From a virus (Duplodnaviria; Caudoviricetes), in IMG/VR virus record IMGVR_UViG_3300020414_000008, positions 64,001 to 128,000 of that record: a stretch of DNA of 64,000 bases. The stretch is one strand, 5' to 3'. Both the position numbers and the translations under genes were made by a program. Each line of letters starts with the position of its first letter. Within the stretch, counting starts at the first letter, position 1. The notes under the pieces were generated by a model. The model saw only the letters and a program-made list of their open reading frames with translations. It searched no databases and was not told the origin of the DNA. Positions 2,883 through 61,873 of the stretch are shown piece by piece.

Positions 2883-2910
2883 GAATTGTCAATTAAATTT
2901 TGTATATTAG
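2879..2910 (+). promoter_or_regulatory. Bacteroidota-like promoter TTAG-N20-TATATTAG upstream of the clamp gene
   Basis: Same spacing as the recurrent TTTG-N20-TATMTTWR element. Confidence 0.6.
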
Positions 2911-2930
2911 TAACAAACTTAAAATAAATT

Positions 2931-3626: not shown

Positions 3627-3635
3627 GGAGCAAAT

Positions 3636-5126: not shown

Positions 5127-5127
5127 T

Positions 5128-12139: not shown

Positions 12140-12654
12140 TGACAGACTTTACAAGTAGACATAGAAGTAATATGAAAGACCCGACTAAGATTAGTAAATC
12201 TAAGTTGGAAAGAGGAATGGTTGCAAAAATCAGATACAAAAAGGTAGATGGTAAACAACGAGATTACTTTGTGTTTGTTTTACAACCTGATTTTAAATTA
12301 AAATTCCATTGTTTAGATTTGAAACATTGTTCACCACAGAGTTTTATCAAATTAGCAGAAGATTTAGATGAGGTGTTTAGTACAACAAAGGGGATTAGAA
12401 AATTAGATTTAACTAAATTAAGAATCGAAGAAAACTCTAAACAGTTTTATACGGGAGTTATTAGAAGTAAAAAACTTCAAGTAGGTTACAGAACTTTAGT
12501 TGAAAAAAATGTAGGTTCAGTTTTGGTCTATAATTACGATTATGGTAACTATGACAAAGTTCCACCAGCAACAGTAAGAAGACAACAAGAACAAGTAAGA
12601 AAAGATGACACGGATTTGGAGACAACACAAGATACTCCACCCGTAGGACTATAA
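12139..12654 (+). CDS. Hypothetical basic protein
   Basis: 171-aa ORF coupled to its neighbours; only faint resemblance to gp2-like DNA end protectors. Confidence 0.5.
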   Translation: MTDFTSRHRSNMKDPTKISKSKLERGMVAKIRYKKVDGKQRDYFVFVLQPDFKLKFHCLDLKHCSPQSFIKLAEDLDEVFSTTKGIRKLDLTKLRIEENSKQFYTGVIRSKKLQVGYRTLVEKNVGSVLVYNYDYGNYDKVPPATVRRQQEQVRKDDTDLETTQDTPPVGL

Positions 12655-12663
12655 AATTAAATT

Positions 12664-13287
12664 ATGAAAATTAGTTACGCAATAACAGTATGTAATGAGT
12701 TTGTAGAATTACAATCACTTTTACCTCACATCTTAAAATACAAAAGAAGAGAAGATGAGGTTGTAATATTATTTGACGAATCAAAAGGTGATGAGGGGAT
12801 AGAGGAGTTTTTAAGAGCGAAATCTGTCAACAACGCATTCGCATGGCATAAAGATAAATTTGATGGTCACTTCGGTGATTGGAAAAACAAGTTGACTGAT
12901 TTATGTAACGGTGATTACATTTTTCAGATTGACGCAGACGAAATACCAAGTAAGGTATTATTACAGAGTATACCCGATATTCTAACAATGAACAACGTTG
13001 ATGTAGTTCTTGTTCCAAGAATAAATACGGTAGAAGGTTTGACCCAAGAACATATCCAAAAGTGGGGATGGAGAGTTGATGAAAAAGGTTGGATTAATTG
13101 GCCAGACCCTCAGTGGAGAATATATAGAAAATCAGATACCATTCGTTGGGTAAACAAGGTACACGAGAAAATCGAAGGATACGAGACTATCTCTAACTTA
13201 CCTTCTTTAGAAGAGTTCGCATTGTTACACCCAAAAGATATCAAAAGACAAGAAAAACAAAATGAGTATTACGATACCCTTGTGTAA
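12664..13287 (+). CDS. GT2 family glycosyltransferase
   Basis: ISYAITVCNE, FQIDADE, W..KVHE. Confidence 0.88.
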   Translation: MKISYAITVCNEFVELQSLLPHILKYKRREDEVVILFDESKGDEGIEEFLRAKSVNNAFAWHKDKFDGHFGDWKNKLTDLCNGDYIFQIDADEIPSKVLLQSIPDILTMNNVDVVLVPRINTVEGLTQEHIQKWGWRVDEKGWINWPDPQWRIYRKSDTIRWVNKVHEKIEGYETISNLPSLEEFALLHPKDIKRQEKQNEYYDTLV

Positions 13288-13338
13288 TCGCGTTTTTGGA
13301 AACGATATGTGTGTCAAAAGAAAATTTAACAATTTCCT

Positions 13339-15036
13339 ATGTTATTAGATTGTACATTAAGAGACGGTGGTTACTATACTAATTGGGACTTTGATACCCA
13401 AATGGTCAAAGACCTTATTAGCGCATGTGATTTATCGGGGGTTGACGTAATCGAGTTAGGTTACAAGTCGCCAGTAAAGGGTGGTAAGTATCGTAAATGT
13501 AACGATAGGTTTATTTGGGACGTATTAGATTATAGACTTCCCGTAAACGTAAAACTTGCGTTTATGATTGACGCGAAAGATTTCATCAAAGATGGTGGAG
13601 TAGACTTTTCATTGATTGACGATTGTATAAATCCGTTTGGTGATTCACCATTTGAGATTTGTAGACTTGCAATCAAACATTCCGAGATTGAATTATCAAA
13701 ACAAATCGGTGAATACATAAACAAAAAAGGATATCGATTAGTAATCAATCTTATGGGTATCTCGTTATTGAGTGATTCTGAAATAAAAGAATTTGGAACA
13801 CTAAACGAGTTAAAACCTGAAGCATTATATTTTGCGGATTCCTACGGAAATCTTACACCTGATAGAACAACTGAATTAGTAAAGTTGTTTAGTGAGTTTG
13901 GTTGTGAGGTCGGGGTTCACACACACGACAATCTTGGTCTTGCTTTTGCAAACTGTTTATCGGCAGAGAAAGAAGGAGCAACTTGGATTGATGGGACTCT
14001 TCTTGGAATGGGTAGAGGTGTCGGGAATGTCAAAACAGAACAACTCGTCACATATTATCAGTACGGTGAGGGAAACAAAACGTATAACTGTAAACCTCTT
14101 CAAGAGGTGATTAGAAAGTGGATGACCCCGTTGATGGAAACACACAAGTGGGGATTCACACACAATTATATGGTTAGTGGATTAAAACACATCCACCCAC
14201 TGTATCCACAGAATCTACAACAGTCACATCTGAACCCTAATAGAATCGAAGATATTTTATTGGACATACCTGATTCCCTTAGGTTTGATTCTGAAAAGAT
14301 TGAAGAGGTGATTGAACCAAAAGTTGCGGTGGTTATACCTGCGAGATACAAATCAAGTAGATTTCCTGGCAAACCACTCGCCAAGATTCTTGGGACCGAG
14401 ATGATTATTTGGGTCGCCGGGATTGCAGAAAATGCTGTTGGTAAAGACAATGTTTATATCGCAACAGAAAATGAAGAAATTGTAGACTTAGTAAAAAGTC
14501 ACGGATACAAAGTAGTGTTAACATCAGACTCTTGTCCGACAGGAACAGACAGAGTAGCAGAAGCAGCATTAGAGATTGACGCAGATTTTATTATCAATAT
14601 CCAAGGTGATGAACCAATGTTAAATTCTAATGACATACAAAAGGTGATAGACAAAATGATAGAGAATCCAAATCATGTCATAAATTGTATGGCACCTTTG
14701 AACAAACACGAAAATGTAGAAGATAAGAAAATACCAAAAGTAATAACAAATCTAAAAGACGAGTTAATTTGGTGTTCAAGAAACCCACTTCCTGGCTTAA
14801 AGGAAGGTCTTCCAACTAATCCAATGAAACAAGTTTGTATCTATGGATTCAATAGAGACCACTTAAAAGCATTTTGGAGTTATGGAAAGAAAACCCCACT
14901 TGAGTTTCAAGAAGATATCGAGATTGATAGATTCATAGAAATGGGGTATAAAATTAAAATGGTTAGATTGGATGGAAGTACAGTAGCAGTTGACTATCCT
15001 GAAGATATAGAATTAGTAGAGAAATTATTAGCATGA
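13339..15036 (+). CDS. Fusion of a DRE-TIM (HMGL-like) pyruvate aldolase and a KdsB-like ulosonate cytidylyltransferase
   Basis: N-terminal LDCTLRDGG, ADSYG, HTHDN, GMGRG.GN; C-terminal IPARYKSSRFPGKPLA, TGTDR, NIQGDEP, VDYPED. Confidence 0.9.
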   Translation: MLLDCTLRDGGYYTNWDFDTQMVKDLISACDLSGVDVIELGYKSPVKGGKYRKCNDRFIWDVLDYRLPVNVKLAFMIDAKDFIKDGGVDFSLIDDCINPFGDSPFEICRLAIKHSEIELSKQIGEYINKKGYRLVINLMGISLLSDSEIKEFGTLNELKPEALYFADSYGNLTPDRTTELVKLFSEFGCEVGVHTHDNLGLAFANCLSAEKEGATWIDGTLLGMGRGVGNVKTEQLVTYYQYGEGNKTYNCKPLQEVIRKWMTPLMETHKWGFTHNYMVSGLKHIHPLYPQNLQQSHLNPNRIEDILLDIPDSLRFDSEKIEEVIEPKVAVVIPARYKSSRFPGKPLAKILGTEMIIWVAGIAENAVGKDNVYIATENEEIVDLVKSHGYKVVLTSDSCPTGTDRVAEAALEIDADFIINIQGDEPMLNSNDIQKVIDKMIENPNHVINCMAPLNKHENVEDKKIPKVITNLKDELIWCSRNPLPGLKEGLPTNPMKQVCIYGFNRDHLKAFWSYGKKTPLEFQEDIEIDRFIEMGYKIKMVRLDGSTVAVDYPEDIELVEKLLA

Positions 15037-15716
15037 ACGGAATTAGAATAGTACACGCAGGTGGTGTTGGTGATGGACTAATGATGTCATCAGTCATAAA
15101 AGAAAAATACTGTAAAGAATACGACATGGTCTACTTAGACGTTCAAAAAGGTAGACTTAATTGGTTGTTTAAAAAACTGTATAATGATACACCAAACATT
15201 CAGTTTGGTACAGGAGCAAAAGATAACACTATTAAATTAGGTTTTGCATCTGCGGTAGAGGGTCCAAAGTGGAGAGAGTTGTCTTGGAATCGAGACCTTG
15301 AAGAAGAGGATAGATTGTATCAGGATTTAGTAAATGAGGTTGGTGAGGATTATATCATAGTCCACGAAAGAGGTCAAGATAATGTTTTCAGGAAGATGTA
15401 TCCTATAAACAGAAACTACTTTGAGAATGACCAACTACCTGTAATCAATGTTCACGCAAGGGAAGGACATATATTAGATTACAGTAAAGTACTACAAAAC
15501 GCAAAAGAGATTCATGTTTACGAGGGAAGTTTTATGAACCTTGCTGATGCAGTCGTAGATGGGTCTAAAGTGCCTTTGTATGGTCATTTGTATTGTAAAC
15601 AACACTACTTTGACCCACATTTGGTACACAATCAAATCATACAATATATAAAAGCCGGAAAATGGCACAAAAACAATTGGAATTATTTATGGGAAATATC
15701 GGAAACACTAATATGA
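15033..15716 (+). CDS. Hypothetical protein, possible GT-B glycosyltransferase
   Basis: GGVGDGL start and SFMNLAD segment resemble GT9-like proteins; inside the glycan cluster. Confidence 0.5.
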   Translation: MNGIRIVHAGGVGDGLMMSSVIKEKYCKEYDMVYLDVQKGRLNWLFKKLYNDTPNIQFGTGAKDNTIKLGFASAVEGPKWRELSWNRDLEEEDRLYQDLVNEVGEDYIIVHERGQDNVFRKMYPINRNYFENDQLPVINVHAREGHILDYSKVLQNAKEIHVYEGSFMNLADAVVDGSKVPLYGHLYCKQHYFDPHLVHNQIIQYIKAGKWHKNNWNYLWEISETLI

Positions 15717-16516
15717 AATTAGGAGTTATAGGAATAGGAGCAGTTGGTTCTGCGATATCAAAGGGATTTGAATACATCGGACACGAAGTTGTCGGATATG
15801 ATATCAAAATACCTGAGACTTCAATAGAAGATACATTAGATACAGAAATTAACTTTATCACAGTTGGAACTCCTACAGGTCCAAATCAAGAATGTGATTT
15901 AACAGCAGTAAATTCTGTGATAGAACAACTTAGTAAATTAGAATATAAAGGTCTTGTTGCACTTAAGAGTACAATAGAACCTGGCACTACACAAAGATTG
16001 ATGAGTGAATATCCAAATCTTAATATGTGTTTTGTACCTGAGTTCCTGAGAGAAAGATGTGCATATGAAGACTTCGTATACAATAACAATATCTTAGTTG
16101 TTGGTACTGATAGTGATGAAAACTATGATTTGATTGTAAAAGCACACGGTTCACTACCATTCCATAAAGTTAAGATGTCAATCATAGAATCAGAACTTAT
16201 GAAGTATTTTTCAAATACATACAAGGCGATGAGAATCACATTTGCAAATTCATTCCATAAAGTAGCAGAACATTTTGGTGCAAACTACGATGCAATCAAA
16301 GACGCGTTTTTATTCCACGGTGTCGGTGAAGGTCACTACTTAAATGTAAATAAAGAGTTTGGTGGTTATGGTGGAATGTGTCTTCCTAAAGATACAAAAG
16401 CAATGAAAGTACTCTGTAAGAAATATAACATTGACGTGGATATTTTCAGATTCATTGATGAGGAAAATGATAAGTTTGTAAAAACAGTACCAAAAGGAAT
16501 GAGATACGACATATGA
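15713..16516 (+). CDS. ugd: UDP-glucose/GDP-mannose dehydrogenase family
   Basis: GIGAVG, VGTP, KSTI.PG, PEFLRE, KYFSN, GYGGMCLPKD. Confidence 0.92.
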   Translation: MKLGVIGIGAVGSAISKGFEYIGHEVVGYDIKIPETSIEDTLDTEINFITVGTPTGPNQECDLTAVNSVIEQLSKLEYKGLVALKSTIEPGTTQRLMSEYPNLNMCFVPEFLRERCAYEDFVYNNNILVVGTDSDENYDLIVKAHGSLPFHKVKMSIIESELMKYFSNTYKAMRITFANSFHKVAEHFGANYDAIKDAFLFHGVGEGHYLNVNKEFGGYGGMCLPKDTKAMKVLCKKYNIDVDIFRFIDEENDKFVKTVPKGMRYDI

Positions 16517-17448
16517 AAATATTAGTAACAGGAGCAGCAGGATTTTTAGGTTCACATCTTTGTGATTCATTATTAGATGGTGGTCACGAAGTCGTTGGAG
16601 TAGATAACTTTTTCAGAGGAAAGGTAAGTAACTTACCAACTCATGAAAACTTTACATTCAAAGAGTTAGACTTAGTTTATAGTGAACCAATAAAAGAATT
16701 TATGTTAGAACATCAGTTCGATGTAGTTGTTCACTACGCAGCAATAAATGGAACAAGATATTTTTATGATATTCCATTTAAAGTCTGTAATCATAATATC
16801 TTAATGACTCAGAATGTATTGAACGCATGTACACCTTCAGTAACAAAAGTAGTATACGCGTCATCATCTGAAATTTATGGACCATCACCAATTGTTCCAA
16901 CTGAAGAAACAGAACCTATGATTTTACATCCATCTGCAAATAGAGACTCTTACGCGTCTTCAAAAGGTATGGGTGAGTTCTTAGTAAGATTATGGGCAGA
17001 TGAAAAAAGAAAAGAGTATTTGATAGTTAGACCTTTTAACACTTATGGTCCAAGAATGGCAACAGGTGGTTATGGTCAAGTGATTCCTGAGTTTATTGAA
17101 AGAATCAAATCAGATGAGGACTTTTACTTATATGGTGATGGAAATCAAACAAGGTCTTTTTGTTATGTTACAGACCATGCTAATATTGTTTCTGATTTAA
17201 TTTTGAAAACATCTAACGAAATAGTAAATGTTGGATTTGATGAAGAGATTACTATTCATGATTTGGCGATGGTTATACATCAAATAATGGATAAAGAATT
17301 TAAAGTAGAGTATAAACCTGCGTGGTCTAACGATACAAAATGGAGAAAACCATCACTTTCTAAGTTAAAAAGTTGTATAGGTTATGAAAATTTTGTATGT
17401 TTAGAAGACGGAATAAATAAAATGTTAAAATATGGCGATAGAAATTAA
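16513..17448 (+). CDS. NAD-dependent epimerase/decarboxylase (UDP-glucuronate decarboxylase-like)
   Basis: TGAAGFLGSHL, SSSEIYG, YASSK, FNTYGPRM, GDGNQTRSFCYV. Confidence 0.9.
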   Translation: MKILVTGAAGFLGSHLCDSLLDGGHEVVGVDNFFRGKVSNLPTHENFTFKELDLVYSEPIKEFMLEHQFDVVVHYAAINGTRYFYDIPFKVCNHNILMTQNVLNACTPSVTKVVYASSSEIYGPSPIVPTEETEPMILHPSANRDSYASSKGMGEFLVRLWADEKRKEYLIVRPFNTYGPRMATGGYGQVIPEFIERIKSDEDFYLYGDGNQTRSFCYVTDHANIVSDLILKTSNEIVNVGFDEEITIHDLAMVIHQIMDKEFKVEYKPAWSNDTKWRKPSLSKLKSCIGYENFVCLEDGINKMLKYGDRN

Positions 17449-17824
17449 AACACCGATTGGTGACGCATTCGATAAGTTATCAATCCTTGAAATAAAACTT
17501 GAAAATGTAAAAGATGAAGTTCAAAGAGAAAATATTCAAAATGAACTTAATTATTTACAAGACAAATTGAAACCATTTTGGGATAATGGTGGAGACGAAC
17601 TAAAAGAAATCTACAGTAGACTCAAAAAGACAAACGGTCAAATGTGGGTTATTGAAGATTCTGTTAGGTTATTAGAAAAAGATAAATTGTTTAATGAAGA
17701 ATTCATTGAATACGCAAGAGCGGTTTATTACACAAATGATAGAAGAGCAGCAGAGAAGAAAGAAATAAATCATTTACTGAATTCAGAATTCTTCGAGGAG
17801 AAGATATACCAAAAATATGATTAA
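17432..17824 (+). CDS. DUF6165-like protein
   Basis: GD..DKLSILEIK, W.IED, ARAVY.TND.R..K..IN, EEK.Y. Confidence 0.75.
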   Translation: MAIEIKTPIGDAFDKLSILEIKLENVKDEVQRENIQNELNYLQDKLKPFWDNGGDELKEIYSRLKKTNGQMWVIEDSVRLLEKDKLFNEEFIEYARAVYYTNDRRAAEKKEINHLLNSEFFEEKIYQKYD

Positions 17825-18503
17825 TTTTAGTGAAGGAAATTCTACCGACTATCCATTTCCTATTATAGAAGTGGAAAACTGTTTTGATGAAGAAACACTT
17901 GAGAACCTTATACAAGAGTTCCCTGATGTATCTTCAGAAGGAACCGTTATGGGTGGTAGAAAAAAGATGAATTCAGGTAGTCCTAAGTTTGACGAGTGGT
18001 TACAAACTGCACCTACTTGGAAAAAGTTTTACGAATATCTAAATGATGATGAAGTATTCCATAGTTTTGTAAACTATTATGATAATGAGTTGAAAGATTG
18101 GGATAGTGTTATTACAACTGATAGTTCGTTAAAGACAGATAGTTTCTTACACATCGATTGGTCCTCTGCGACTGATGGTTATGTTAGAGAAATACATAGA
18201 GATACAAATAAAAGGATTTGGAACTTTCTAATATTCTTTAATGATAAAGATTGGGAAGGTGGTGACTTCTTGATTCATTCATCTGATAATCTAAATAAAT
18301 TAGACCAACAGATATGGGACTTAAACGCATTACCTGTACACAAAACAGTCGAAGCGAAGAAGAATAAAGGAGTATTCTTTTTGTCAACACCCGATTCTTA
18401 TCATTCAGTATCTAAACAGTTTAACACAAACTCACCAAGAAAGTTTATATATGGTTCTTACTCATATAGAGATGGTGATGTATTTAATAAGAGACATCGA
18501 TAA
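17817..18503 (+). CDS. 2OG-Fe(II) oxygenase
   Basis: HRD, WEGGDF, SYHSV, RKFIY. Confidence 0.8.
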   Translation: MINFSEGNSTDYPFPIIEVENCFDEETLENLIQEFPDVSSEGTVMGGRKKMNSGSPKFDEWLQTAPTWKKFYEYLNDDEVFHSFVNYYDNELKDWDSVITTDSSLKTDSFLHIDWSSATDGYVREIHRDTNKRIWNFLIFFNDKDWEGGDFLIHSSDNLNKLDQQIWDLNALPVHKTVEAKKNKGVFFLSTPDSYHSVSKQFNTNSPRKFIYGSYSYRDGDVFNKRHR

Positions 18504-18799
18504 TGTATAGACCATTACCTAAAGGTTTAAACATTATGAAAAGTAACATAGATGGAATGGGTTTATTCGCAACAATGGATATTCCATCTGATTATGACTT
18601 TGGTATAAGTCATGTCCCAAACTCTAAGTTTGAGAACGGATACATTAGAACACCCTTAGGTGGATTTATCAATCATAGTGATAATCCAAATTGTAAAGTG
18701 GTGACGGATGTAGACGGTAATTACAGATTAGTGTCAACTCAGTTTCTTTCGATTGGAGACGAGATTACACTAAAATATAATTTATATAAAATAAAATGA
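18503..18799 (+). CDS. Minimal SET-domain protein
   Basis: G.GLFA, FINHSDNPNC, GDEITLKY. Confidence 0.88.
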   Translation: MYRPLPKGLNIMKSNIDGMGLFATMDIPSDYDFGISHVPNSKFENGYIRTPLGGFINHSDNPNCKVVTDVDGNYRLVSTQFLSIGDEITLKYNLYKIK

Positions 18800-19197
18800 A
18801 CATAGACGAATATGACAAAATGCAACACCACGAAAACAACTATCAAGTTGCGATAGACTTTGATGGTGTTGTCCATGGTAATTCAAAAGGATTCCATGAT
18901 GGAACTGTATACGACCCACCTATTGAGGGTTCTTTAGACGCAATCAAGTGGTTTAAGTCTCAAGGGTACGATATAGTTTTATTTACCGCAAAAGTAAAAC
19001 CCGATAGACCACTTGTAAATGGTAAAACAGGTGAAGAGTTGATTTGGGAGTGGTTAACTAAATATGAGATTGATACTTATATAAAAGAAATAACTTGTGA
19101 AAAACCAAGAGCAATCTGTTACATAGATGACAGAGGTATCAGGTTTGAATCATGGGAACAGACGTTAAAACAATTTAATGAAATCACAAACAAGTAA
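18796..19197 (+). CDS. HAD-family phosphatase
   Basis: IDFDGV, FTA, KP.A..YIDDR. Confidence 0.85.
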   Translation: MNIDEYDKMQHHENNYQVAIDFDGVVHGNSKGFHDGTVYDPPIEGSLDAIKWFKSQGYDIVLFTAKVKPDRPLVNGKTGEELIWEWLTKYEIDTYIKEITCEKPRAICYIDDRGIRFESWEQTLKQFNEITNK

Positions 19198-19999
19198 GTT
19201 ACGAGAAGAACTTCTAAAATTAGAAGAACCTGAAGACAGACTAAAAGTATTAAAGAATCAGTATGAAGGTGAAACTGCATATATAATCGCAGGTGGACCG
19301 TCATTGAACAGATATACGAAAGAAGAACTTAGAGATTTTCTAAGAGATAAGTTATGTTTACCAATCAAACAATCATATAACTTTCTAAAAGAAGTAGCAG
19401 ACTTCCATTTACTAAATTGGTGTAACTTTGCACCGTATGATTGGTCAAATAATAAATCAATCATAACGTGGGCAATATTTGAACAGTTCCATCCTCAAAT
19501 GATATTTGAAAATAATTTAGAGAATGATTTATTCATTCCTATATTTAGAAACAATCCAAATACAGGTGGTGGAGTTGGTCCTAATAAAATGATTCACTCA
19601 TTATCAGAACGAGAGGATTGGGACACTATGAAGTTAGACCACCCCGAATATGGATTTAACCAACCTTGGGGGCCTGGTATTATGTACGAAATGGCACTTC
19701 CATTAGCAATGTATTTAGGTTGTAAAAAAATAGTAACTATTGGTTGGGATATTGGTGATTTATCATCGTTTGACAAAGGAACTGAAGACGATACACAAAG
19801 AGTATTTCAAGAACACTTTTATGGTGATGAACACGAAAAGATTGTATATGCAAAAACATCAATGGGTCCAAGAGAAATACTATCAGTAGCAAAAGCAACA
19901 AAAGGTATTTACTATTGGATGAAAGAACAAGGTGTTGAATGGGAAATAAATTCAGATAGAAATCCTGGCTACGAAGGAATTCCAAGAGTAGAGATATGA
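19178..19999 (+). CDS. Maf/DUF115 (MAF_flag10)-like transferase
   Basis: AYIIAGGPSL, A.YLGCKKIVTIGWD. Confidence 0.7.
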   Translation: MKSQTSKLREELLKLEEPEDRLKVLKNQYEGETAYIIAGGPSLNRYTKEELRDFLRDKLCLPIKQSYNFLKEVADFHLLNWCNFAPYDWSNNKSIITWAIFEQFHPQMIFENNLENDLFIPIFRNNPNTGGGVGPNKMIHSLSEREDWDTMKLDHPEYGFNQPWGPGIMYEMALPLAMYLGCKKIVTIGWDIGDLSSFDKGTEDDTQRVFQEHFYGDEHEKIVYAKTSMGPREILSVAKATKGIYYWMKEQGVEWEINSDRNPGYEGIPRVEI

Positions 20000-20940
20000 T
20001 AGCAACAGGTTGTTTAGTACAATGGTATGAGATTGATATGTTTGAGGAATATGTAGATTCTCTTAAACTATCAATTGGTAATCAAAAAGATAAAGTACTG
20101 ATTGATTTATGTTTAGTAACAAATCAGGAATTAGAAAAATCCACCAAGGATTTGTACGACATAAAAAAGGAATTCATAAGAGTCTGTGATAGTTTAGAAA
20201 GTAATGGGTATGAGTTGGACTATGATATAACTCAAGACTTATATACAATCGCAGATTACAGAAGAGATTTTAACGAAAAGTATTGTGAACTTGTAGATGT
20301 ATTGTTTTGGGGTGAATCTGATATGTTAGTACCATCACAGGCGATTGAAACTATTTTATCATTACATGAGGCAGTAAAAGAACAAACACCAAAATGGTTA
20401 GGGTTCTTCGCTACTTGTAAAATGTGGGACGATTCATGGAAACCATTAGAACATCCAAAACTCACTGATTTACCAAGAGACGCACACGCGTGGTATGGAA
20501 CGAGATGTTATATGGATTATGATAAAATGGAAGAGATAAACTCTGATACTGAATCACCACATATAGAATCAACTTACAACTATAAATTCAATGGTTGTGG
20601 GTTAGTAATGTCATCAGAACTTGTAAGAAGTGGAGTAAATATACCAAAATGTGTATTTTTTACCCATGAAGACACAGCATTGATGAATAAAATGTTAACT
20701 TTATTTGGAAATAACCAAATTCCTTTGTATATTGTAAAGAATATATTGTTAGTTCATAATAGAGAACACCCAAGAAAGAGAAAATATGTACAGGATGAAG
20801 TCGGGAGTGATATTAATGAACAAAGAAAATCAAATGATTGGTATAAAGTAGCGAGTGAAATGTCAAAGTTGAACGCGTATAACTTTATGAAACAAGGAAG
20901 AAACTTTAATTGGAAAGACGTATGGAAAGAAGTCCTGTAA
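19996..20940 (+). CDS. GT-A-like glycosyltransferase
   Basis: WGESDM (DxD-like), HEDTA, VHNREHP; inside the GT cluster. Confidence 0.6.
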   Translation: MIATGCLVQWYEIDMFEEYVDSLKLSIGNQKDKVLIDLCLVTNQELEKSTKDLYDIKKEFIRVCDSLESNGYELDYDITQDLYTIADYRRDFNEKYCELVDVLFWGESDMLVPSQAIETILSLHEAVKEQTPKWLGFFATCKMWDDSWKPLEHPKLTDLPRDAHAWYGTRCYMDYDKMEEINSDTESPHIESTYNYKFNGCGLVMSSELVRSGVNIPKCVFFTHEDTALMNKMLTLFGNNQIPLYIVKNILLVHNREHPRKRKYVQDEVGSDINEQRKSNDWYKVASEMSKLNAYNFMKQGRNFNWKDVWKEVL

Positions 20941-21821
20941 CAACTTGTATATCTACAAACAATAATCTTGATTATGTAAAACTTGCTTACGAATCCGTAA
21001 GAAAGAATGCATATTACAAGGACCAACCGATTGTGATTCACGCAGAGAATTGTACTGATGGTACAGATGAGTGGTTACTTAATCTAATGCAAGAGGATAA
21101 GAATCTAAAAGGTTTTATAGAACATAACGATACACCAAGAGGAATTGGTGGTGGTATGGACTTTTGTGTTGACAAATCAGAAACCGAGTATGTAAATATA
21201 ATCCACTCTGATATGTGGATATCACCAAATCAAGATTTAGAGTTACAAAAGATTGTAGAAGAGGGTGATGGGGTTGATAGAATTATTGCGTCATCATTTA
21301 GAATCCAACCTAAGATATTTCCAAATGACCCTGATTATAGGCCAGGAACTGTATTTGTATCAACTGATGAGTTTGGTGAATTCCATCATAACTTTGATAA
21401 GGAGTGGTTTGATGATTGGTCTCAGAAACTTTCATCAATGGATGAGACTCGTGTAAGAAAAGGTGGTGGTGCAGGATTCTTCTGTAAAAAAGAAGACTAT
21501 GTTTGGATTGGTGGTAACGACCCACTATTCGCACCCGCGTCATACGATGATATGGATTTGTTTATTAGAATGCAATTAGAAGGGTACAAGTTTATTATGT
21601 CATCTAAGTCAGTTGTATATCATTTTTCAGCAAGAGGTTCTCATTTTAGAGATGAAGCAAAAGATATATTGAATTCCAAATCAAAAAGACAACAAGAATC
21701 AGAATCAAACAACGCAAGAAAGTTTATTAATAAGTGGGGTAGATTACCTGAACACGATGACCAAACTTTTGTAAAACCAATAGAAGGAACAAGTAACCCA
21801 AATAGGATACCATTATTATGA
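20922..21821 (+). CDS. GT2 family glycosyltransferase
   Basis: CTDGT, HSDM, IGGND..F, DDMDL, VYHF. Confidence 0.85.
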   Translation: MERSPVTTCISTNNNLDYVKLAYESVRKNAYYKDQPIVIHAENCTDGTDEWLLNLMQEDKNLKGFIEHNDTPRGIGGGMDFCVDKSETEYVNIIHSDMWISPNQDLELQKIVEEGDGVDRIIASSFRIQPKIFPNDPDYRPGTVFVSTDEFGEFHHNFDKEWFDDWSQKLSSMDETRVRKGGGAGFFCKKEDYVWIGGNDPLFAPASYDDMDLFIRMQLEGYKFIMSSKSVVYHFSARGSHFRDEAKDILNSKSKRQQESESNNARKFINKWGRLPEHDDQTFVKPIEGTSNPNRIPLL

Positions 21822-22690
21822 GAATATTAGTTACAGGTGGAGCAGGATTTGTTGGTACAAATCTAATTAAAAGATTAGTTACAAACGGACATGACGTAGT
21901 ATCAGTCGATGACTATTCTACAGGAGATAAAGAAAATCATGTAGAAGGTTGTAAATATGTAGAAATGTCTGTTGTAGACTTTGACAGGTATCACGAACTT
22001 GAGTTTTCAGAGTTTGATTTAATTTATCATTTAGCAGGTTTGTCAAGAATCCAACCATCTTTTAAGAATCCAACACATACATTCAATGTAAACACAGGTG
22101 GTACTCAGAAGATTTTGGAGTTCGCAAGAAAGACAAATACAAAAGTAATTTACGCAGGTTCATCTTCAAAACATCATGACCCATATCAATCACCATATGC
22201 AACTTGTAAGTATCTTGGTGAAGAGATTTGTAAAATGTACAAAAGAACTTACAATATGGATATTGAGATTTGTAGATTCTATAATGTTTATGGACCACAT
22301 GAAGTTATCGAAGGTGATTGGGCAGCCGTGATTGGTATTTGGAGAAGACAAATTAGAGATAACCAACCGATTACAATTGTTGGTGATGGTGAACAAAGAA
22401 GAGACTTTACTCATGTACACGATATTGTTGACGCATTATTAGAACTACAAACTGTAAAAACTTCATTAGACATATTAGACGCGTGGGAATTAGGAACGGG
22501 TATGAATTACTCAATCAATCAGGTAGCAGATATGTTTGTAAAATATAGTGGATGTAAAAAAGAATACATTGATGACCAATATGGAAATTACAGAGAAACA
22601 CTCAGAGAGTCTGATGAAGCATTGAAATTATTAAAATGGTTTCCAAAAGATAGATTAGAAAGTTATATAAAAGGATTATATGAAGTTTGA
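21818..22690 (+). CDS. NAD-dependent sugar epimerase/dehydratase
   Basis: TGGAGFVG, YATCK, FYNVYGP, GDGEQRRDF. Confidence 0.9.
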   Translation: MRILVTGGAGFVGTNLIKRLVTNGHDVVSVDDYSTGDKENHVEGCKYVEMSVVDFDRYHELEFSEFDLIYHLAGLSRIQPSFKNPTHTFNVNTGGTQKILEFARKTNTKVIYAGSSSKHHDPYQSPYATCKYLGEEICKMYKRTYNMDIEICRFYNVYGPHEVIEGDWAAVIGIWRRQIRDNQPITIVGDGEQRRDFTHVHDIVDALLELQTVKTSLDILDAWELGTGMNYSINQVADMFVKYSGCKKEYIDDQYGNYRETLRESDEALKLLKWFPKDRLESYIKGLYEV

Positions 22691-23504
22691 AATTAGTGGT
22701 GAATTTGGTTACGAGTTGTTCGCAGGATTACCTTTAGTAAATTGGTATAAAGAACAGGGACATGATGTTGAAGTCATATCATCTAAAGGTTCCTCTATAT
22801 TATATCCAAATATAAAAGTAACTGAAAAATATAGTAATAGACATAGTTTTTTTCAATTAGACATTGATGGTGAATCTTACTACAGACCACATAATCATGT
22901 AGCAGGTGTTTTTTCAAAACCTGTTGTTGGTGATAAACTAATGTGGGAAGACAAATGGTCACCACCTGATTTGAAATCATATTATTTAGAACAATTCCAA
23001 ATAAAAACAGATAAACCATTTTTAGTCGTTTCAAATAAAATTCAAAATGAATGGGGACGTGGTCCTGTAAACTATCTTAGTGTCGATGTACTAAGACAGA
23101 TATTTGAATTATGTAAAGATAAATTTAATATTGTTTACAATAGACCAAATGTAAACGACATAGTAAATGATGATACACTACAAGAGAAATTCGGAGATAG
23201 AGAATTGGTAAGAGAGATGAGTATTCCGACCATGCAAAATTACGCAGAAGAATATGACTTAGATTACAACACCACACAAATGGCAGTAATGTCAAATTGT
23301 AATCACTTTATATCAACTCAAGGTGGTAACTCTGCCTTGAGTGCGTATTTTGGTGGAAGAGGTATTATTTATGGTGTCGAGGGTTACGAGGTAAAACATT
23401 ACGCATATAGAAGATTCTTCCCTAAACTATCAAGTCAGGCAATATGGCCTGTACAAACATACGATGATTTAATCAGTAAAGTAAAAAGTAGTATATTATG
23501 TTAA
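22680..23504 (+). CDS. Hypothetical glycan-pathway protein
   Basis: GEFGYEL, FISTQGG; inside the glycan cluster. Confidence 0.5.
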   Translation: MKFEISGEFGYELFAGLPLVNWYKEQGHDVEVISSKGSSILYPNIKVTEKYSNRHSFFQLDIDGESYYRPHNHVAGVFSKPVVGDKLMWEDKWSPPDLKSYYLEQFQIKTDKPFLVVSNKIQNEWGRGPVNYLSVDVLRQIFELCKDKFNIVYNRPNVNDIVNDDTLQEKFGDRELVREMSIPTMQNYAEEYDLDYNTTQMAVMSNCNHFISTQGGNSALSAYFGGRGIIYGVEGYEVKHYAYRRFFPKLSSQAIWPVQTYDDLISKVKSSILC

Positions 23505-24676
23505 GTAAAAAAGATATTAGTTTTATTCAACCATCAAGAGATAATTTAAAGTATCTTAAATGGTCATATGAATCAATTAGAAAAAATGGTGGTCCTGAAC
23601 CACATATTTGTGTAGCAGATGATTTCAGTTCTGATGGAACTTGGGAATGGTGTCAAGAAAGAATGAAAGAAGACCCAAACTTCAAAGCAATTAGAAACGA
23701 AGGACCAACAAGATTAGGACATACAATCTTATATGATAGATTGATTAATGAAGTAGCAACTACAAAAGTGGTTGGAATCTATCACGCAGATATGTATCTT
23801 TGTCCAGGCGCATTAGAATCATTGATAAAGAATCTAAAACCAAAAACAGTAGTATCTTGGACTCGTATCGAACCACCATTACATCCTGATGGTCCTGAAA
23901 AGATTCTTTGGGATGGTAAAACTGAACCCGAGGATTTCTTAGAAGAAGAACTTCTTGTAGAGATTCCTAAGTTTGCAAACAAAGATAAAATTACAAAAGG
24001 TATATTCGCACCTTGGTTTTTATATAAAGAAGACTTTACATCAATCGGTGGACACGACCCTTTGTATGCACCACAATCAAAAGAGGACTCTGATATATTT
24101 AACAGATTTTTACTAAATGGATATGATTTGATTCAAGTTTGGGACGGGTTTGTATATCACATGACTTGTAGAGGGTCAAGATTCAATCCAACATTAACTG
24201 AAGTAGGTAAAGAATCAGATGAATGGTTAAAACAAAATCAGAGGTCAACAAGGAATTTTATCAGAAAATGGGGTCATTTTGTAAAACATGATGAATTTAT
24301 GTTACCTCAAATTCCACATAAATACGATATTCAGTTTAATGTAGAGAACTGTAATTCACAAATGTTAAATATTTTAGAACCTTGGTGTGATAGAATTGTT
24401 ACAGATTTACCAAAAGATATCATTGAGAGTTATATAAAATTGGAACAACCAAATACTCAGTTTGATTTAACTAAAAGAATAAATGTAGATATTGATTCAG
24501 ATATTGAGATAAGTTTTGACGCAAATAGACTTTCAAATCAATCATTTACATACATCCAAAAGTGGGCAGAAATCTTTGATTCTAACGAAATTGAAATCGG
24601 AGAGTTTGAATTAGACATATTTAATATAAAGGTTAATAAAATAAAATACTACGAAAGTGAGTTGATAAATCTATGA
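23498..24676 (+). CDS. GT2 family glycosyltransferase
   Basis: DDFSSDGT, HADM, IGGHD, EDSD, VYH; paralogous to 20922. Confidence 0.85.
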   Translation: MLSKKDISFIQPSRDNLKYLKWSYESIRKNGGPEPHICVADDFSSDGTWEWCQERMKEDPNFKAIRNEGPTRLGHTILYDRLINEVATTKVVGIYHADMYLCPGALESLIKNLKPKTVVSWTRIEPPLHPDGPEKILWDGKTEPEDFLEEELLVEIPKFANKDKITKGIFAPWFLYKEDFTSIGGHDPLYAPQSKEDSDIFNRFLLNGYDLIQVWDGFVYHMTCRGSRFNPTLTEVGKESDEWLKQNQRSTRNFIRKWGHFVKHDEFMLPQIPHKYDIQFNVENCNSQMLNILEPWCDRIVTDLPKDIIESYIKLEQPNTQFDLTKRINVDIDSDIEISFDANRLSNQSFTYIQKWAEIFDSNEIEIGEFELDIFNIKVNKIKYYESELINL

Positions 24677-25178: not shown

Positions 25179-25499
25179 ATGCCGTCAACAAGTAAACAAC
25201 AACAAAAGTACATGGGTCTTGTATACGCCTTGAAAAAAGGTGATGTAAAACCATCAGATGTTTCTAAAGATGTTAGAGATACGGCGAAAAGAATGTCCAA
25301 AGCAGATATTAAAAAATACGCTTCAACTAAACATAAAGGACTTCCAAGTAAAAAAGAATCCTTGTATAAACAGTTAGAAGAACTCATCAAAAAGATTGAT
25401 GAGACTTGGTCAGATAAGTATAAAAAATCAATCGACTGTAACAATCCAAAAGGGTTTTCTCAGAAAGCACATTGTGCAGGTCGTAAAAAAAGGAAATAG
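25179..25499 (+). CDS. DUF3008-like basic protein with C-terminal WSxKYKKSIDCNNPKGFSQKAHC module
   Basis: S.QQQK.MG...A..MS...KYAST.HKGLP; AGGAG RBS. Confidence 0.7.
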   Translation: MPSTSKQQQKYMGLVYALKKGDVKPSDVSKDVRDTAKRMSKADIKKYASTKHKGLPSKKESLYKQLEELIKKIDETWSDKYKKSIDCNNPKGFSQKAHCAGRKKRK

Positions 25500-25500
25500 A

Positions 25501-26382
25501 ATGTTACTAAAAATAGGTTCAAGAGGTAATGAAGTTAAAGAATTACAAGAATTCCTCGGTATTGGAGCAGATGGAATCTTTGGTAAAGGAACTGCAGCAG
25601 CAGTTAAAGAGTTCCAAAAAGTCAACGGTTTGGGTGCTGATGGTATTGTGGGTCCTGCCACTTGGGATTGTATGGGTCTTGCTACTACTGATAATTCAGA
25701 GAAGACGTACACAACGGAAAATGGATTAGTAATACACAGACACTTTTTACCTGAAGGTGAATACAAAAGTGGAATTACAAAAAAAGAATATTGTTTCATA
25801 CATCATACAGCAGGATGGCAGAATCCTTACAACTGTATAGATAATTGGGGACGAGATAGTAGAGGTGCAGTTTGTACAGAGTTTGTATTAGGTGGACCAT
25901 CTATTAAAGGTAATAATGATACACATGATGGTGAGATGGTTCAGGCGTTTCCTGACGGTCACTACGGATGGCACTTAGGTAAGAATGGGTCACAACATAT
26001 GCATACTCATTCTGTAGGTGTTGAAGTTTGTAACTTTGGTTGGATTAAGAATGGTAAGACATATGCGGGTACAACAGCAGCAGAAGACCAACTTGTAAAG
26101 TTAGACAAACCATTTAGAGGATTTGATGTGTGGCATAGATACTCAGATAAACAAATTGAGTCTTTAAGACTTTGGATTCTGTACATCGCAGAGAGAGATG
26201 GAATTGATGTAAGAAAAGGTTTACCTGAGTTAATAAAAGAAAAAGGTGCAGACGCATTTGAATTTAATGAAGACGCATACTATGGACGAGTAAAAGGACT
26301 ATGGACACATACCAATACTCGTAAAGATAAGTTCGATATGTTCCCGCAAGAGGAATTATTGGATATGTTAATTAGTTTGTAG
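25501..26382 (+). CDS. Endolysin-like: peptidoglycan-binding domain plus N-acetylmuramoyl-L-alanine amidase
   Basis: ADGIFG/ADGIVGPATW PG_binding_1 repeats; IHHTAG, WHLG, GVEVCN, TH..TRKDKFD. Confidence 0.88.
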   Translation: MLLKIGSRGNEVKELQEFLGIGADGIFGKGTAAAVKEFQKVNGLGADGIVGPATWDCMGLATTDNSEKTYTTENGLVIHRHFLPEGEYKSGITKKEYCFIHHTAGWQNPYNCIDNWGRDSRGAVCTEFVLGGPSIKGNNDTHDGEMVQAFPDGHYGWHLGKNGSQHMHTHSVGVEVCNFGWIKNGKTYAGTTAAEDQLVKLDKPFRGFDVWHRYSDKQIESLRLWILYIAERDGIDVRKGLPELIKEKGADAFEFNEDAYYGRVKGLWTHTNTRKDKFDMFPQEELLDMLISL

Positions 26383-43702: not shown

Positions 43703-45300
<1,598 letters not shown>

Positions 45301-45301
<1 letters not shown>

Positions 45302-58057: not shown

Positions 58058-59533
58058 GTGACTAAAAAGATAAACAAAATATTTGTACTATCCGTAAAAG
58101 GAAACTACAATGATATTGGAAATCGATTAGACGAATTAGACCTATCTTACGAGGTACCCTATGAAGTTGTCGATGGTATCATTGGTAGAGAAACCGATAT
58201 GGAATACTCCGAGTACCCATGGACATTAACTGAAATGAATCCATGGAACGAGTGGTGGGAACGTCCAATGTTAGATGGTGAAGTTGGATGTGCATTAGGT
58301 CACTACAATATGTGGAAACAGGCGTATGAAGAGGGACATGAAGTATGTATGTTCTTAGAAGAAGACTTCAAAGGTGTCAAGTCACTATTCGACCTCGGTA
58401 TGATTCCCAACGATATTGATGGTTTATATTTAGGTAGAAGACGAGTACCAAATCACGAATGGTTATATGATGGACCTGAACAAAACTATAACGACAATTG
58501 GGTACATCCACAATACAGTTACAACGCTCACGCATACATACTAACAAGAGAAGGATTAAGAAAACTATTGTATGATTATGATTTCATAAACAATCTAATG
58601 CCACTCGATGAGTTTTTGATATCAACAATAAATCTACATCCACGAAAAGATATCAGGGAGTTTATCAAACCAACACTAAAGTTTATTGCTCCACCAACCA
58701 ATGAAGACAATTGGATAAACCAAACATCCGTTGATATCGAATCGGGTAATGAATATGGTACCTCACTAACTGAGGATATAACACGATTAGAACGAAGTAT
58801 TAAATTTGATATGGTTTATGTCATTACATTAGATACAAGTAACGAGAACGTAGAAAGATTAATCAACAGAGTAAAAGAATTAGGTTTACCAAATGATGTT
58901 CCAATAAGAATATGGAGAGGGACAAATGGTAAGGAAGAGTTTGATACGATTGAAAAGAGAGAACAAATGGGTATCAAGTTCTATGATGATTGGAAGATAG
59001 AAAGTGGTAACAATTGGTGGACAAGACCTGTAACTGTTGGTGAAGCAGGTGGTGTACATTCTCATATTAGAATATGGGAAGACGTAGTTGAAAGAGAATA
59101 TAATAACGTATTAATATTAGAAGATGATTTTAATCCAACACAAAGGTTTCATTGGAATACCTTTGATGAATTAAAAGATTACGATTGGGATTTAGTATTC
59201 CTATCAAGACTTTTGATTGAAGGAAAGGATACTAATGTAGGATTAGAGAATTGGGTCAAACCAAGTTATTCATATCAAACCCATTGTTATGTTTTAAACT
59301 ATGAAGGAGCAAAGAAATTAGTAGAAACAAATGTACCAACACTAAAACAAAATATAATAGTATCAGATGAGTTCTTACCTGCCACATACACAACTCATCC
59401 AAGAGAAGACATTAGGAAAATGTTTATTCAAAACATGAATGTCTTAGCTCTTAAATCAAACCCTGTTATCCAAGACAGGTATGAAGCGGCAAACAATTCA
59501 CAGACATCCCCAATCGAGGGAATAGATTTCTAA
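58058..59533 (+). CDS. Tandem double GT25 glycosyltransferase (COLGALT-like)
   Basis: Two repeats of GE.G...H..W, LE[ED]DF, YSY..H.Y.L..G..KL, DEFL, HPR.DIR. Confidence 0.88.
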   Translation: MTKKINKIFVLSVKGNYNDIGNRLDELDLSYEVPYEVVDGIIGRETDMEYSEYPWTLTEMNPWNEWWERPMLDGEVGCALGHYNMWKQAYEEGHEVCMFLEEDFKGVKSLFDLGMIPNDIDGLYLGRRRVPNHEWLYDGPEQNYNDNWVHPQYSYNAHAYILTREGLRKLLYDYDFINNLMPLDEFLISTINLHPRKDIREFIKPTLKFIAPPTNEDNWINQTSVDIESGNEYGTSLTEDITRLERSIKFDMVYVITLDTSNENVERLINRVKELGLPNDVPIRIWRGTNGKEEFDTIEKREQMGIKFYDDWKIESGNNWWTRPVTVGEAGGVHSHIRIWEDVVEREYNNVLILEDDFNPTQRFHWNTFDELKDYDWDLVFLSRLLIEGKDTNVGLENWVKPSYSYQTHCYVLNYEGAKKLVETNVPTLKQNIIVSDEFLPATYTTHPREDIRKMFIQNMNVLALKSNPVIQDRYEAANNSQTSPIEGIDF

Positions 59534-59612: not shown

Positions 59613-59671
59613 CAATTTATTAAATATATTTTAATATTTATATAATAGTTAACTAAATAAAAACAATTGTT

Positions 59672-59941
59672 ATGAGTAAAGTTTCAAGAAGATTATACCA
59701 AGCCGTAGAGGCAAAGTATACAGCAGATATCATGGACGCAAAAGCAAGACTATCAGTCTACTTTGAGAATCCTGTAGCTATTGGGGAACACCCACAACAC
59801 ACAGAAGAAATCGACAAACTTATCGGACAACTTGAAAGTGCAACAGGAAAGTTAGAAACACTTTCTGAGTACTTTGGAAAAGAATACGGTCACGATATCC
59901 CTGTATCTGAATCAGACGAAAAAGAAATCTTAAAAGGATAA
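59672..59941 (+). CDS. Phage protein with PVAIGEHPQ motif
   Basis: Helical hairpin protein; motif recalled from T4-like phages. Confidence 0.7.
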   Translation: MSKVSRRLYQAVEAKYTADIMDAKARLSVYFENPVAIGEHPQHTEEIDKLIGQLESATGKLETLSEYFGKEYGHDIPVSESDEKEILKG

Positions 59942-59948
59942 ATTCGTA

Positions 59949-60022
59949 GGGGATATAGCTCAGATGGCTAGAGCACTACGCTTGCACCGTAGGGGTCGTG
60001 AGTTCGAGTCTCACTATCTCCA
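59949..60022 (+). tRNA. tRNA-Ala(UGC)
   Basis: Acceptor GGGGATA/TATCTCC with G3:U70, anticodon loop CTTGCAC. Confidence 0.96.
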
Positions 60023-60100
60023 CTATGTTTGTTTGTTTTTGTACATACTTATTATTGATATAAGTGTCTATATAAAAACGTTTTAAAAGGAGAAAGTATT

Positions 60101-60730
60101 ATGTCAATCGCAAATCAATTTAAAGGACTACCAATCGAAGAACTAATCGTTGGTCCACTAACAGGTGTGGCAAAAGGTCAGGCGCAACTAAATGATATTA
60201 CTTGGAAGTACATCTCTGAGGTTGCATTTGAGCCACCTTCAGGAAGTAGTACCCATCGTAAATCAAGAAAAATCGATGTTGAACTAAACAGGTATATAAA
60301 GGACTCGGAAACAGGTGAATTAAAGTTACAACAAATTCAATCTATGATTCCTATGTTACCGTTAGTACCACTACCAACATTAGCAGTTACATCTGCAGAT
60401 GTTGATTTTACTATGGAAGTTCATGAATCAACCTTGTCTAAGAATACAAGTGATTCATCATTCGAAACATCAGTTCAGGCTTCAGGTGGATTTTGGGGAG
60501 TTAAGTTTAAAGCCTCTATGACAGGTAAAGTAGCAACTCATAAAGAGAATACAAGAAAAACTGACAACTCAGCTAAGTACAATGTTAAAGTACACGCAGA
60601 ACAACTACCACAAACTGAAGGTATGGGTAAACTAAACGATATGTTACACATGATGATGGAACCAACTGTAGTAGGTATGGAAGACCCAACAACAGGAGTA
60701 GCGACACCATCAACAGGTTCAGCAGGATAG
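60101..60730 (+). CDS. DUF2589-like protein
   Basis: F.GLP..LI.GPL..A..Q..L, P.L.LVP.P.L, F.MEV, TDNSAKY.V.V.A, P.EG..KL.D. Confidence 0.75.
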   Translation: MSIANQFKGLPIEELIVGPLTGVAKGQAQLNDITWKYISEVAFEPPSGSSTHRKSRKIDVELNRYIKDSETGELKLQQIQSMIPMLPLVPLPTLAVTSADVDFTMEVHESTLSKNTSDSSFETSVQASGGFWGVKFKASMTGKVATHKENTRKTDNSAKYNVKVHAEQLPQTEGMGKLNDMLHMMMEPTVVGMEDPTTGVATPSTGSAG

Positions 60731-60741
60731 TCCATAACTAA

Positions 60742-60773
60742 TTTGGAAAATTGAAATATTTTTTGTATATTAG
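60742..60773 (+). promoter_or_regulatory. Promoter TTTG-N20-TATATTAG
   Basis: Recurrent geometry. Confidence 0.7.
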
Positions 60774-60805
60774 TAAGAAGTAAAAAAATAAGTTATAGTT
60801 AAAGC

Positions 60806-61315
60806 ATGGCTAAGGTTAATTTAGAAGAACTACTTGGTGGTCTACAAGAGGCCTCACAAGTAGTTCTTTCTATACAAGAAAGACAACACATCAATACCAT
60901 CTCAAAGTATTTTGATAAAGATGGTACACCAATCACTCAAAAGTTTAGAATCGGTGACAGGGATATAGAGATACCACTCTACATTCTTGCGGACCATTCA
61001 TCTGTTGGGTTAGATAAGTTGGATATTGAGTTCCAAGCAAGACTATTGCCAGGAAATACAACTAAACCATCAGCACTCAAAAAGAATTTATTACCTATCT
61101 TTCAAAGACAAAAACAAAAAGGTAATGACAAGTACAAACATCAGATTAGTAATATCTCAGTTGATGGTAACAGTCCTGACAAGGAAGGTGTTGCTAAAAT
61201 CAGTATACATTTTAAGAAAGATAATAAACCCGAGGCGGTTTCTCGATTAGTAGATATGTTAATAGCGAAAATGGATGACCCGACTCATAAAGTTATAGAG
61301 AATGGCGATTCCTGA
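60806..61315 (+). CDS. Second, shorter DUF2589-like protein
   Basis: LEELL.GLQ.A, IPLY.L...S..LD.L.IEF, I.F.....PEA.SRLVD. Confidence 0.6.
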   Translation: MAKVNLEELLGGLQEASQVVLSIQERQHINTISKYFDKDGTPITQKFRIGDRDIEIPLYILADHSSVGLDKLDIEFQARLLPGNTTKPSALKKNLLPIFQRQKQKGNDKYKHQISNISVDGNSPDKEGVAKISIHFKKDNKPEAVSRLVDMLIAKMDDPTHKVIENGDS

Positions 61316-61583
61316 GTTAGAATTACCAAATAGTAAGAAAGGGAAACCTATGGAAAAAGAGCAAGATACTACTAACACAAAGGTAAGTAGTAACGGTAAA
61401 CAAAGATTACGAATTAGTATGTTTGTAATCTCATGTTTTGCTTTTACATTGGTTTGGATATTCTTATCAATGCACTTTGACAAAGGTCTTAACGCAGAAT
61501 GGAAAGAACTTCTATTATTGTTGTTAGGTGCATTAATCGGAAACTTCAACCAAGTAATTAATTATTGGTTCAAAGATAAGTAG
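61302..61583 (+). CDS. Two-TM membrane protein
   Basis: WKELLLLLLGALIG...VINYWF. Confidence 0.65.
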   Translation: MAIPELELPNSKKGKPMEKEQDTTNTKVSSNGKQRLRISMFVISCFAFTLVWIFLSMHFDKGLNAEWKELLLLLLGALIGNFNQVINYWFKDK

Positions 61584-61584
61584 T

Positions 61585-61788
61585 ATGCCTTTACCATGTC
61601 CGAGTTGTACTACACCGTTAGATTTAACTTTAGAATTTATTCTAAAGAATCCTGTATCGGTTTGTCCACATTGTCAAACTGTAATGAACTTCAATGTAGA
61701 TAAAAGTATACAGAAAGAGTATAATCAGGCGTTACAAAACATAGAGGACGTGAAAAAGAAATACAGTAAGATAGCTAAGTTTAAATAA
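61585..61788 (+). CDS. Zinc-ribbon protein
   Basis: CPSC...CPHC plus C-terminal helix. Confidence 0.7.
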   Translation: MPLPCPSCTTPLDLTLEFILKNPVSVCPHCQTVMNFNVDKSIQKEYNQALQNIEDVKKKYSKIAKFK

Positions 61789-61789
61789 T

Positions 61790-61861
61790 GCTCGGTTCGT
61801 CTAACGGTTAGGACTTCAGGTTTTCATCCTGGCAATAGGGGTTCGATTCCCCTACCGAGTA
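61790..61861 (+). tRNA. tRNA-Glu(UUC)
   Basis: Acceptor GCTCGGT/ACCGAGT, anticodon loop TTTTCAT, TTCGATT T-loop. Confidence 0.95.
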
Positions 61862-61873
61862 CAAATAAATGTT

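Follow-up and report, generated by a model that had tools for sequence, protein, structure and literature searches.

A DUF2589 paralogue pair and a CPxC protein form a conserved module of large tailed phages with a possible role at the host envelope

What does a pair of related proteins from a family without an assigned function do in the genome of a large tailed phage, and which of the neighbouring genes belong with it? The question is raised by a cassette of four small genes, here called A to D, on the plus strand of the virus record IMGVR_UViG_3300020414_000008 (Caudoviricetes). The window that we analysed is a stretch of 64,000 nucleotides, bases 64001-128000 of this 180,769-bp record, which is estimated to be ~94% complete (G+C 34.6%). 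A first-pass annotation, made from the sequence alone, had described the cassette as two DUF2589-like paralogues, a protein with two transmembrane (TM) helices, and a zinc ribbon, and had proposed a pore or filament system acting in superinfection exclusion, inter-phage defence, or lysis. We find that the feature is real and non-random, and that the cassette is the phage version of a widespread, uncharacterised DUF2589 module. What is new here is the A+B+D core of large phages with its shuffled gene order, the conservation statistics of a hairpin in A, and the presence of a PG_binding_1 domain at the hairpin-equivalent loop of B.

Membership and conserved unit of the module

Gene A (60101-60730) encodes a hairpin-bearing DUF2589 protein of 209 amino acids, and gene B (60806-61315) a hairpin-less paralogue of 169 amino acids. 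Their assignment to DUF2589 is borne out by the hidden Markov model PF11655, which has 154 positions and a Pfam gathering cut-off of 23 bits: A scores 94.4 bits (E 1.1e-26, model positions 1-151) and B 41.7 bits (E 1.9e-10, positions 2-152). Pairwise BLAST between A and B detected the C-terminal motif alone, and profile-profile comparison with hhalign aligned the two over their full length (98% probability, E 1e-13, 14% identity). The pair has the arrangement that characterises the module, i.e. a hairpin-bearing protein with the signature ENTRxTDxSAKY beside a hairpin-less paralogue. The homologue search with A returned 1222 proteins. DUF2589 comprises 1010 representative clusters at 50% identity, is encoded at 384 places in a one-genome-per-species collection of prokaryotes, and is present in many large phages, but neither a function nor a fold is known for it: the literature mentions it in passing and assigns no function to any member. 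PHROGs, NCBIfam, and PADLOC have no family for A or B, and the longer DUF2589 proteins (300-440 amino acids) gave no second Pfam domain. When 50,697 deposited phage genomes were searched with A by tblastn, there was no match, and thus no cultured phage among them was found with the module.

We then analysed the gene neighbourhoods of 88 viral or metagenomic loci—80 from a search of viral contigs with A, many of them 250-480 kb long, and the others from metagenome assemblies. A, B, and D occur together in 85 of them, and the remaining three are truncated by the ends of the contigs. The hairpin-bearing and the hairpin-less paralogue lie side by side in 86. The gene order comes in at least four forms (A-B-D, D-A-B, B-D-A, and A-B-x-D, where x is another gene), and this co-occurrence in spite of rearrangement suggests that A, B, and D are a functional unit.

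Gene C (61302-61583; 93 amino acids) behaves differently. Searches by tblastn identified C-like genes in only 17 of the 88 loci, including the two that are this genome's own DNA (L001 and L002) and one near-identical to it (L009); outside these three, the C-like genes lie ~1 kb from the A-B-D core. Other small membrane proteins adjoin the module in a subset of loci, and C itself matches phrog_1544 weakly. C is thus an accessory gene outside the conserved core, and of the four-gene unit that had been expected, what stands is the association of A, B, and D. The description of C as a protein with two TM helices holds in part: one hydrophobic helix is clear (residues 35-60), and the second (~66-90), found by a window calculation done by hand, is marginal. 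The hydropathy script that we wrote for this analysis, which found the clear helix of C, found no hydrophobic helix in A, B, or D, and A has no obvious N-terminal leader.

In contrast to C, gene D (61585-61788; 67 amino acids) constantly accompanies A and B in phages as their third partner. It encodes a protein with two CPxC pairs, all four cysteines of which are invariant in the alignment, as the zinc ribbon described before would have it, and with a conserved basic C-terminal helix ending in KF(G/K). A profile search with D found 212 proteins. The best 120 of these are 67-98 amino acids long, almost always 67-69, and where they bear an organism name, it is uncultured Caudovirales phage. Among the models of PADLOC, A, B, and C had no match, and D had only weak ones at the level of zinc ribbons (E ~1e-3).

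Several of the phage loci have features of their own. The 816,658-bp JGI contig Ga0620986_00085 carries a 12.6-kb region including A-B-x-D twice, ~650 kb apart (L005 and L006), which may be due to a large duplication, or to a megaphage-sized genome having been assembled as a concatemer. Genes for transfer-messenger RNA lie directly downstream of D-A-B in L070 (5221-5614) and L071 (5163-5568). In one phage lineage (L007/L008, 896-3107), two HATPase_c proteins and a receiver-domain protein, a set resembling a two-component system, precede the module.

The hairpin of A and the equivalent loop of B

We modelled A with AlphaFold2 using 71 diverse homologues (26-88% identity), which also served for the column statistics given below. 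The monomer has a mean predicted local distance difference test (pLDDT) score of 73.8. In the model, a long N-terminal helix (residues 12-42) is followed by four strands (57-67, 74-84, 94-108, and 155-168) and by a C-terminal helix (174-185). Between the last two strands, residues ~110-153 are modelled with pLDDT <50. This is the loop (residues 109-153; 60425-60559) where a Ser/Thr-rich β segment around an amphipathic hairpin had been noticed, and the pattern is conserved across the homologues. The loop starts with a Ser/Thr tract (109-120), in which these two residues make up 35-63% of each column, and continues with two amphipathic strands (121-128 and 134-146) joined by a G-G-aromatic-G tip (129-133). 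The mean hydropathy of both strands alternates strictly between apolar and polar positions. The tip has Gly in 39%, Gly in 69%, an aromatic residue in 86%, and Gly in 57% of the homologues, and G142 is conserved in 92%.

Is this hairpin the mark of a known class of pore-forming proteins? The first-pass annotation had likened it to the membrane-inserting regions of aerolysin-type and MACPF proteins. The aerolysin/ETX-MTX2 proteins do share with A an amphipathic β-hairpin that adjoins a Ser/Thr-rich tract. However, A has neither sequence nor fold similarity to them and no evident secretion signal, is much smaller, is predicted to consist of a helix and a four-stranded core, and is always paired with a hairpin-less paralogue. 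No aerolysin-type chain was found among the matches of the model of A, either in Foldseek against the PDB (best E 0.07) or in a wide search with VIA-align (best Z 3.9 to any solved chain), with the caveat that the hairpin itself is in the part modelled at low pLDDT. No MACPF domain was matched in Pfam at E ≤ 1, and a protein of 209 amino acids is too small to hold one. Kinship with either class therefore finds no support, and the analogy is limited to the hairpin pattern. More generally, the predicted fold has no match to a solved structure, nor to a predicted one outside DUF2589, since the searches of BFVD and the ESM Atlas returned DUF2589 relatives only. Sequence searches of the solved structures gave nothing with A or its profile, and with B only 3co5 at chance level (E 2.1). 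The prediction of an A+B complex scored 0.17, against a mark of 0.32, a value that speaks neither for nor against binding.

Some pore-forming proteins act from the cytoplasmic side. Bacterial gasdermins, which are small proteins of the cytoplasm, make pores in the membrane from within. The Pepco proteins (Trypco1/2) are small soluble proteins that form β-barrel pores, also from inside (bioRxiv 10.1101/2025.11.14.688446). We use these systems as a working analogy only: A is likewise small, soluble, and β-rich, and could open pores in the inner membrane from the cytoplasmic side. The phage module differs from them by having no protease in the cassette, no evident cleavable tail, another predicted fold, and a heteromeric pair of paralogues. 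DUF2589 belongs to neither family, and the cassette proteins have no Pfam match to Trypco or gasdermin domains at E ≤ 1.

The model of B is of low confidence (pLDDT 54), with the same order of secondary structure elements as A. Where A has its hairpin, the alignment places in B a basic insert (residues 82-113; 61049-61144) with the motif LKKNLLPIFQRQKQKG; this cationic segment at the equivalent loop is the one that had been reported earlier. Other phages have a different element at the same place. In the jumbo phages of the L016/L018 type, a PG_binding_1 domain is inserted in B exactly at the loop matching the hairpin of A (30 bits in B of L016, encoded at 4694-5407, for a Pfam cut-off of 23), which suggests that the loop face of the A/B pair is beside the cell wall at some stage. 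A C-terminal extension of B in L007 and L043 also resembles a peptidoglycan-binding domain when inspected by eye, without a Pfam match. As a separate observation on L018, a patatin-like phospholipase and an Endonuclease_NS protein are encoded directly upstream of the module (2325-3946).

Links to the envelope and competing readings

The bacterial relatives provide further links to the wall. From the 384 places of the prokaryote scan, we fetched and analysed 80 loci. In 62 of these, a single A-type gene, recognised by the ENTRxTDxSAKY signature, is accompanied by a single B-type gene, the same hairpin-bearing plus hairpin-less arrangement as in the phage pair, and most of the others have extra B-type copies. 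A conserved partner of ~88 amino acids that belongs to no Pfam family adjoins A, usually directly downstream, in 62 of the 80 loci; Firmicutes have a different partner, of ~75 amino acids. In the phage module, the 67-residue D takes the place of the ~88-residue (Proteobacteria) or ~75-residue (Firmicutes) protein. Next in the operon of Proteobacteria are genes for a third B-like protein, for an exported protein, and for a wall hydrolase, and in Pseudomonas the operon also encodes a 57-residue membrane protein and an exported 128-residue protein. We identified a wall hydrolase in at least 34 of the 80 loci: GH19 in 19, GH108 with PG_binding_3 in 10, and a PG_binding_1 protein in 5. These three kinds of hydrolases are mutually unrelated, and three representatives lack an N-terminal leader when inspected by eye. 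Together with the PG_binding_1 insertion in phage B, the three non-homologous hydrolases make four separate links to peptidoglycan.

A signal-less hydrolase beside small envelope-active proteins is also what bacterial DUF2589 operons share with the holin-endolysin(-spanin) cassettes of phages and with type 10 secretion, itself a domesticated phage lysis cassette, e.g., in Yersinia entomophaga (PMC10847048). The peptidoglycan-binding domain fused into B of some phages is a further likeness. The differences lie in the components. Holins are small proteins with a TM helix and a charged C-terminus, and A and B, which have no such helix, are thus not holins; C has a hydrophobic helix but lies outside the conserved core. 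No spanin-like pair was recognised. The hydrolase that adjoins A/B in so many bacterial loci is missing next to the phage module: the only recognisable endolysin candidate of this phage, a protein of 328 amino acids with PG_binding_1 and Amidase_2 domains, is encoded at 25396-26382 of the window. The T4 lysozyme model (PF00959) had no match in the phage genome. Neither had the T4 holin model (PF11031), which is uninformative because the control also matched nowhere.

Our tentative reading, which we regard as quite possible though short of probable, is that the module breaches the envelope or is associated with lysis, as suggested by the hairpin and by the links to wall-binding and wall-degrading proteins. 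It agrees with the part of the first-pass annotation that placed the system at the envelope, with lysis among the options: PG_binding_1 in the loop of B and the signal-less hydrolases beside bacterial A/B pairs fit such a role. The formation of a β-barrel pore is a plausible hypothesis. A and B would be soluble paralogues that probably assemble into a hetero-oligomer. The hairpin of A, with its Gly-aromatic-Gly tip, would be suited to enter a lipid bilayer, and the loop of B—cationic and amphipathic here, peptidoglycan-binding in some phages—would be directed at the surface of the wall or of the membrane. D, an obligate partner in phages, would perhaps be an assembly factor or a brake, and C an optional helper. 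The module would act on the host envelope from inside, permeabilising or destabilising a membrane next to the wall during lysis, or letting wall hydrolases that lack a signal reach their substrate. The latter would be its task in bacteria, and lysis or a related late step its task in phages.

Several observations weigh against an envelope-breaching role. Hydrophobic helices and evident signal peptides are absent from both A and B, no pore-former is among the fold matches in any of the searches, and the hairpin is short (~8 and 11 alternating residues), its apolar positions being mostly small (Ala, Val). The endolysin candidate is 35 kb distant from the cassette. In other phages, the neighbours of the module are unrelated to its proposed role and change from lineage to lineage: a DNA ligase in some, the gene of the gp23 capsid protein in others, or a patatin-like phospholipase with a non-specific nuclease. 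The bacterial loci are phylogenetically clustered, so that 34 out of 80 overstates the number of independent associations with hydrolases. Finally, Archaeoglobus, which has no murein, also has DUF2589 clusters (AF0414-0417; PMC3949148).

Could A and B build something that never enters a membrane? They might form a filament, tube, cage, or virion-associated structure, in which the hairpin would serve β-augmentation between subunits and D would act as assembly chaperone. Clusters of several paralogues, such as those of the bacterial loci and of Archaeoglobus (AF0414-0417; PMC3949148), are typical of heteromeric structural assemblies, and the low pLDDT (<50) of the hairpin in the monomer is expected for an element that becomes ordered only in an oligomer. 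The lack of hydrophobic helices in A and B points the same way, as does the position of the module directly after the gp23 capsid gene in phages of the L063 type. We nevertheless consider such an assembly unlikely, because the proteins show no likeness to known tube, sheath, or capsid folds, because the bacterial operons lack other virion genes, and because the peptidoglycan-binding insertion and the neighbouring hydrolases would go unexplained unless the assembly were anchored to the wall. A role in competition, as a moron-type gene set for superinfection exclusion, inter-phage defence, or counter-defence, would have the module block incoming DNA at the envelope or kill the cell on secondary infection. 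Many large phages keep the module at 58-70% identity, which suggests a core function over one in an arms race. No PADLOC model matches A or B, there is no sensor or protease partner nearby, and the bacterial copies lie beside wall hydrolases instead of known defence genes. These points make the competition role rather improbable in our view, even if the cassette lies in the accessory, tRNA-rich part of the genome, its genomic position and gene order vary among related phages, and pore-forming effectors are common in abortive-infection systems.

The DUF2589 complex could also be the cargo instead of the door: a bacteriocin-like pore-former released by a hydrolase-based machinery akin to type 10 secretion and acting on other cells. 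The bacterial operons, with A/B, a small membrane protein, an exported protein, and a signal-less hydrolase, do have the make-up of a release cassette. In a locus of the Pseudomonas putida group (L173), the DUF2589-GH19 operon is followed, at 10868-11760, by a gene for an EndoU_bacteria toxin-domain protein with a signal peptide and by a possible immunity gene for 88 amino acids. Yet the EndoU protein has a signal peptide of its own and may have nothing to do with the operon, no hydrolase adjoins the phage module, and a toxin for other cells would bring little obvious gain to a lytic phage. We hold this explanation to be very unlikely.

Returning to an envelope-breaching module, its most specific form would be that A and B are a new hetero-oligomeric pore, soluble at first and inserting into membranes by β-hairpins, which opens the cytoplasmic membrane from within, needing no TM-helix holin, and frees signal-less wall hydrolases, and which is shared by bacteria, archaea, and tailed phages, with the zinc ribbon timing or chaperoning its assembly in the latter. 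Stated in such detail, we find the proposal doubtful. Should the pair indeed breach membranes, lysis or protein release would have a route that needs no holin, and the pair could be a missing lysis component in T4-like and jumbo phages that infect marine and freshwater hosts. In its phage form, the module offers a compact start for experiments, with three small genes and a natural variant carrying a peptidoglycan-binding insertion.

Expression signals and genomic surroundings

A and B follow different upstream motifs, as had been noticed: ATACTTAT at 60045 for A, and TTTG-N20-TATATTAG at 60742 for B. The region upstream of A (60045-60077) also contains TATATAAAA at 60069, a partial match to the late-type motif CATATTTATATA, and the promoter class of this region can only be proposed with caution. 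A full copy of CATATTTATATA belongs to the open reading frame (ORF) at 59672, just upstream of A. The same motif is found 15-35 nucleotides upstream of many genes of the structural region (e.g., at window 59629-59641 and before the genome ORFs at 188, 1232, 28680, 34901, 103235, and 143499), and is probably the late promoter of this phage, a variant of T4 TATAAATA. Before B, the promoter-like site TTTGGAA-N17-TATATT(AG) at 60742-60773 matches the consensus of a very uniform class, TTTGGA(A/T)-N17-(TG)TATATTAG, with ~14-18 plus-strand copies in the genome. A and the group B-C-D may thus be expressed from different signals, whose class and timing we can only surmise from these motifs. A scan of the region for σ70-type promoters was not above the shuffled expectation. 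In metatranscriptomes of several marine studies, there are contigs that match portions of A, B, and C, among them one (60660-61043) that runs across the A-B junction with no mismatch; contigs of RNA libraries can derive from DNA, and we did not count them as proof of transcription.

The cassette lies exactly between two tRNA genes, as confirmed by ARAGORN: tRNA-Ala (TGC) at 59949-60023 and tRNA-Glu (TTC) at 61790-61862, the latter starting two bases past the stop codon of D. These flanks recur solely in L009, a contig 96% identical to this genome, and the other loci lack them. We have therefore rejected the idea that they signal integration or mobility, and no meaning of these flanks finds support.

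Among the proteins of the record is a major capsid protein of the T4 type (PF07068, E 9e-77). The nearest cultured relatives by this protein are the Microcystis phage Mel-JY01 (60%) and the Flavobacterium 'immuto' phages (56%), and near-identical DNA is present in marine metagenomes from several studies. Elsewhere in the window, we observed a GroEL-type chaperonin (43706-45301; Cpn60_TCP1, E 4e-68) and a large set of sugar-modifying genes (9435-24676 and 58058-59533), including glycosyltransferases of families 1 and 2. This set also holds a double GT25 protein and a 565-residue fusion of HMGL-like and cytidylyltransferase domains, perhaps from a pathway of the nonulosonic-acid type.

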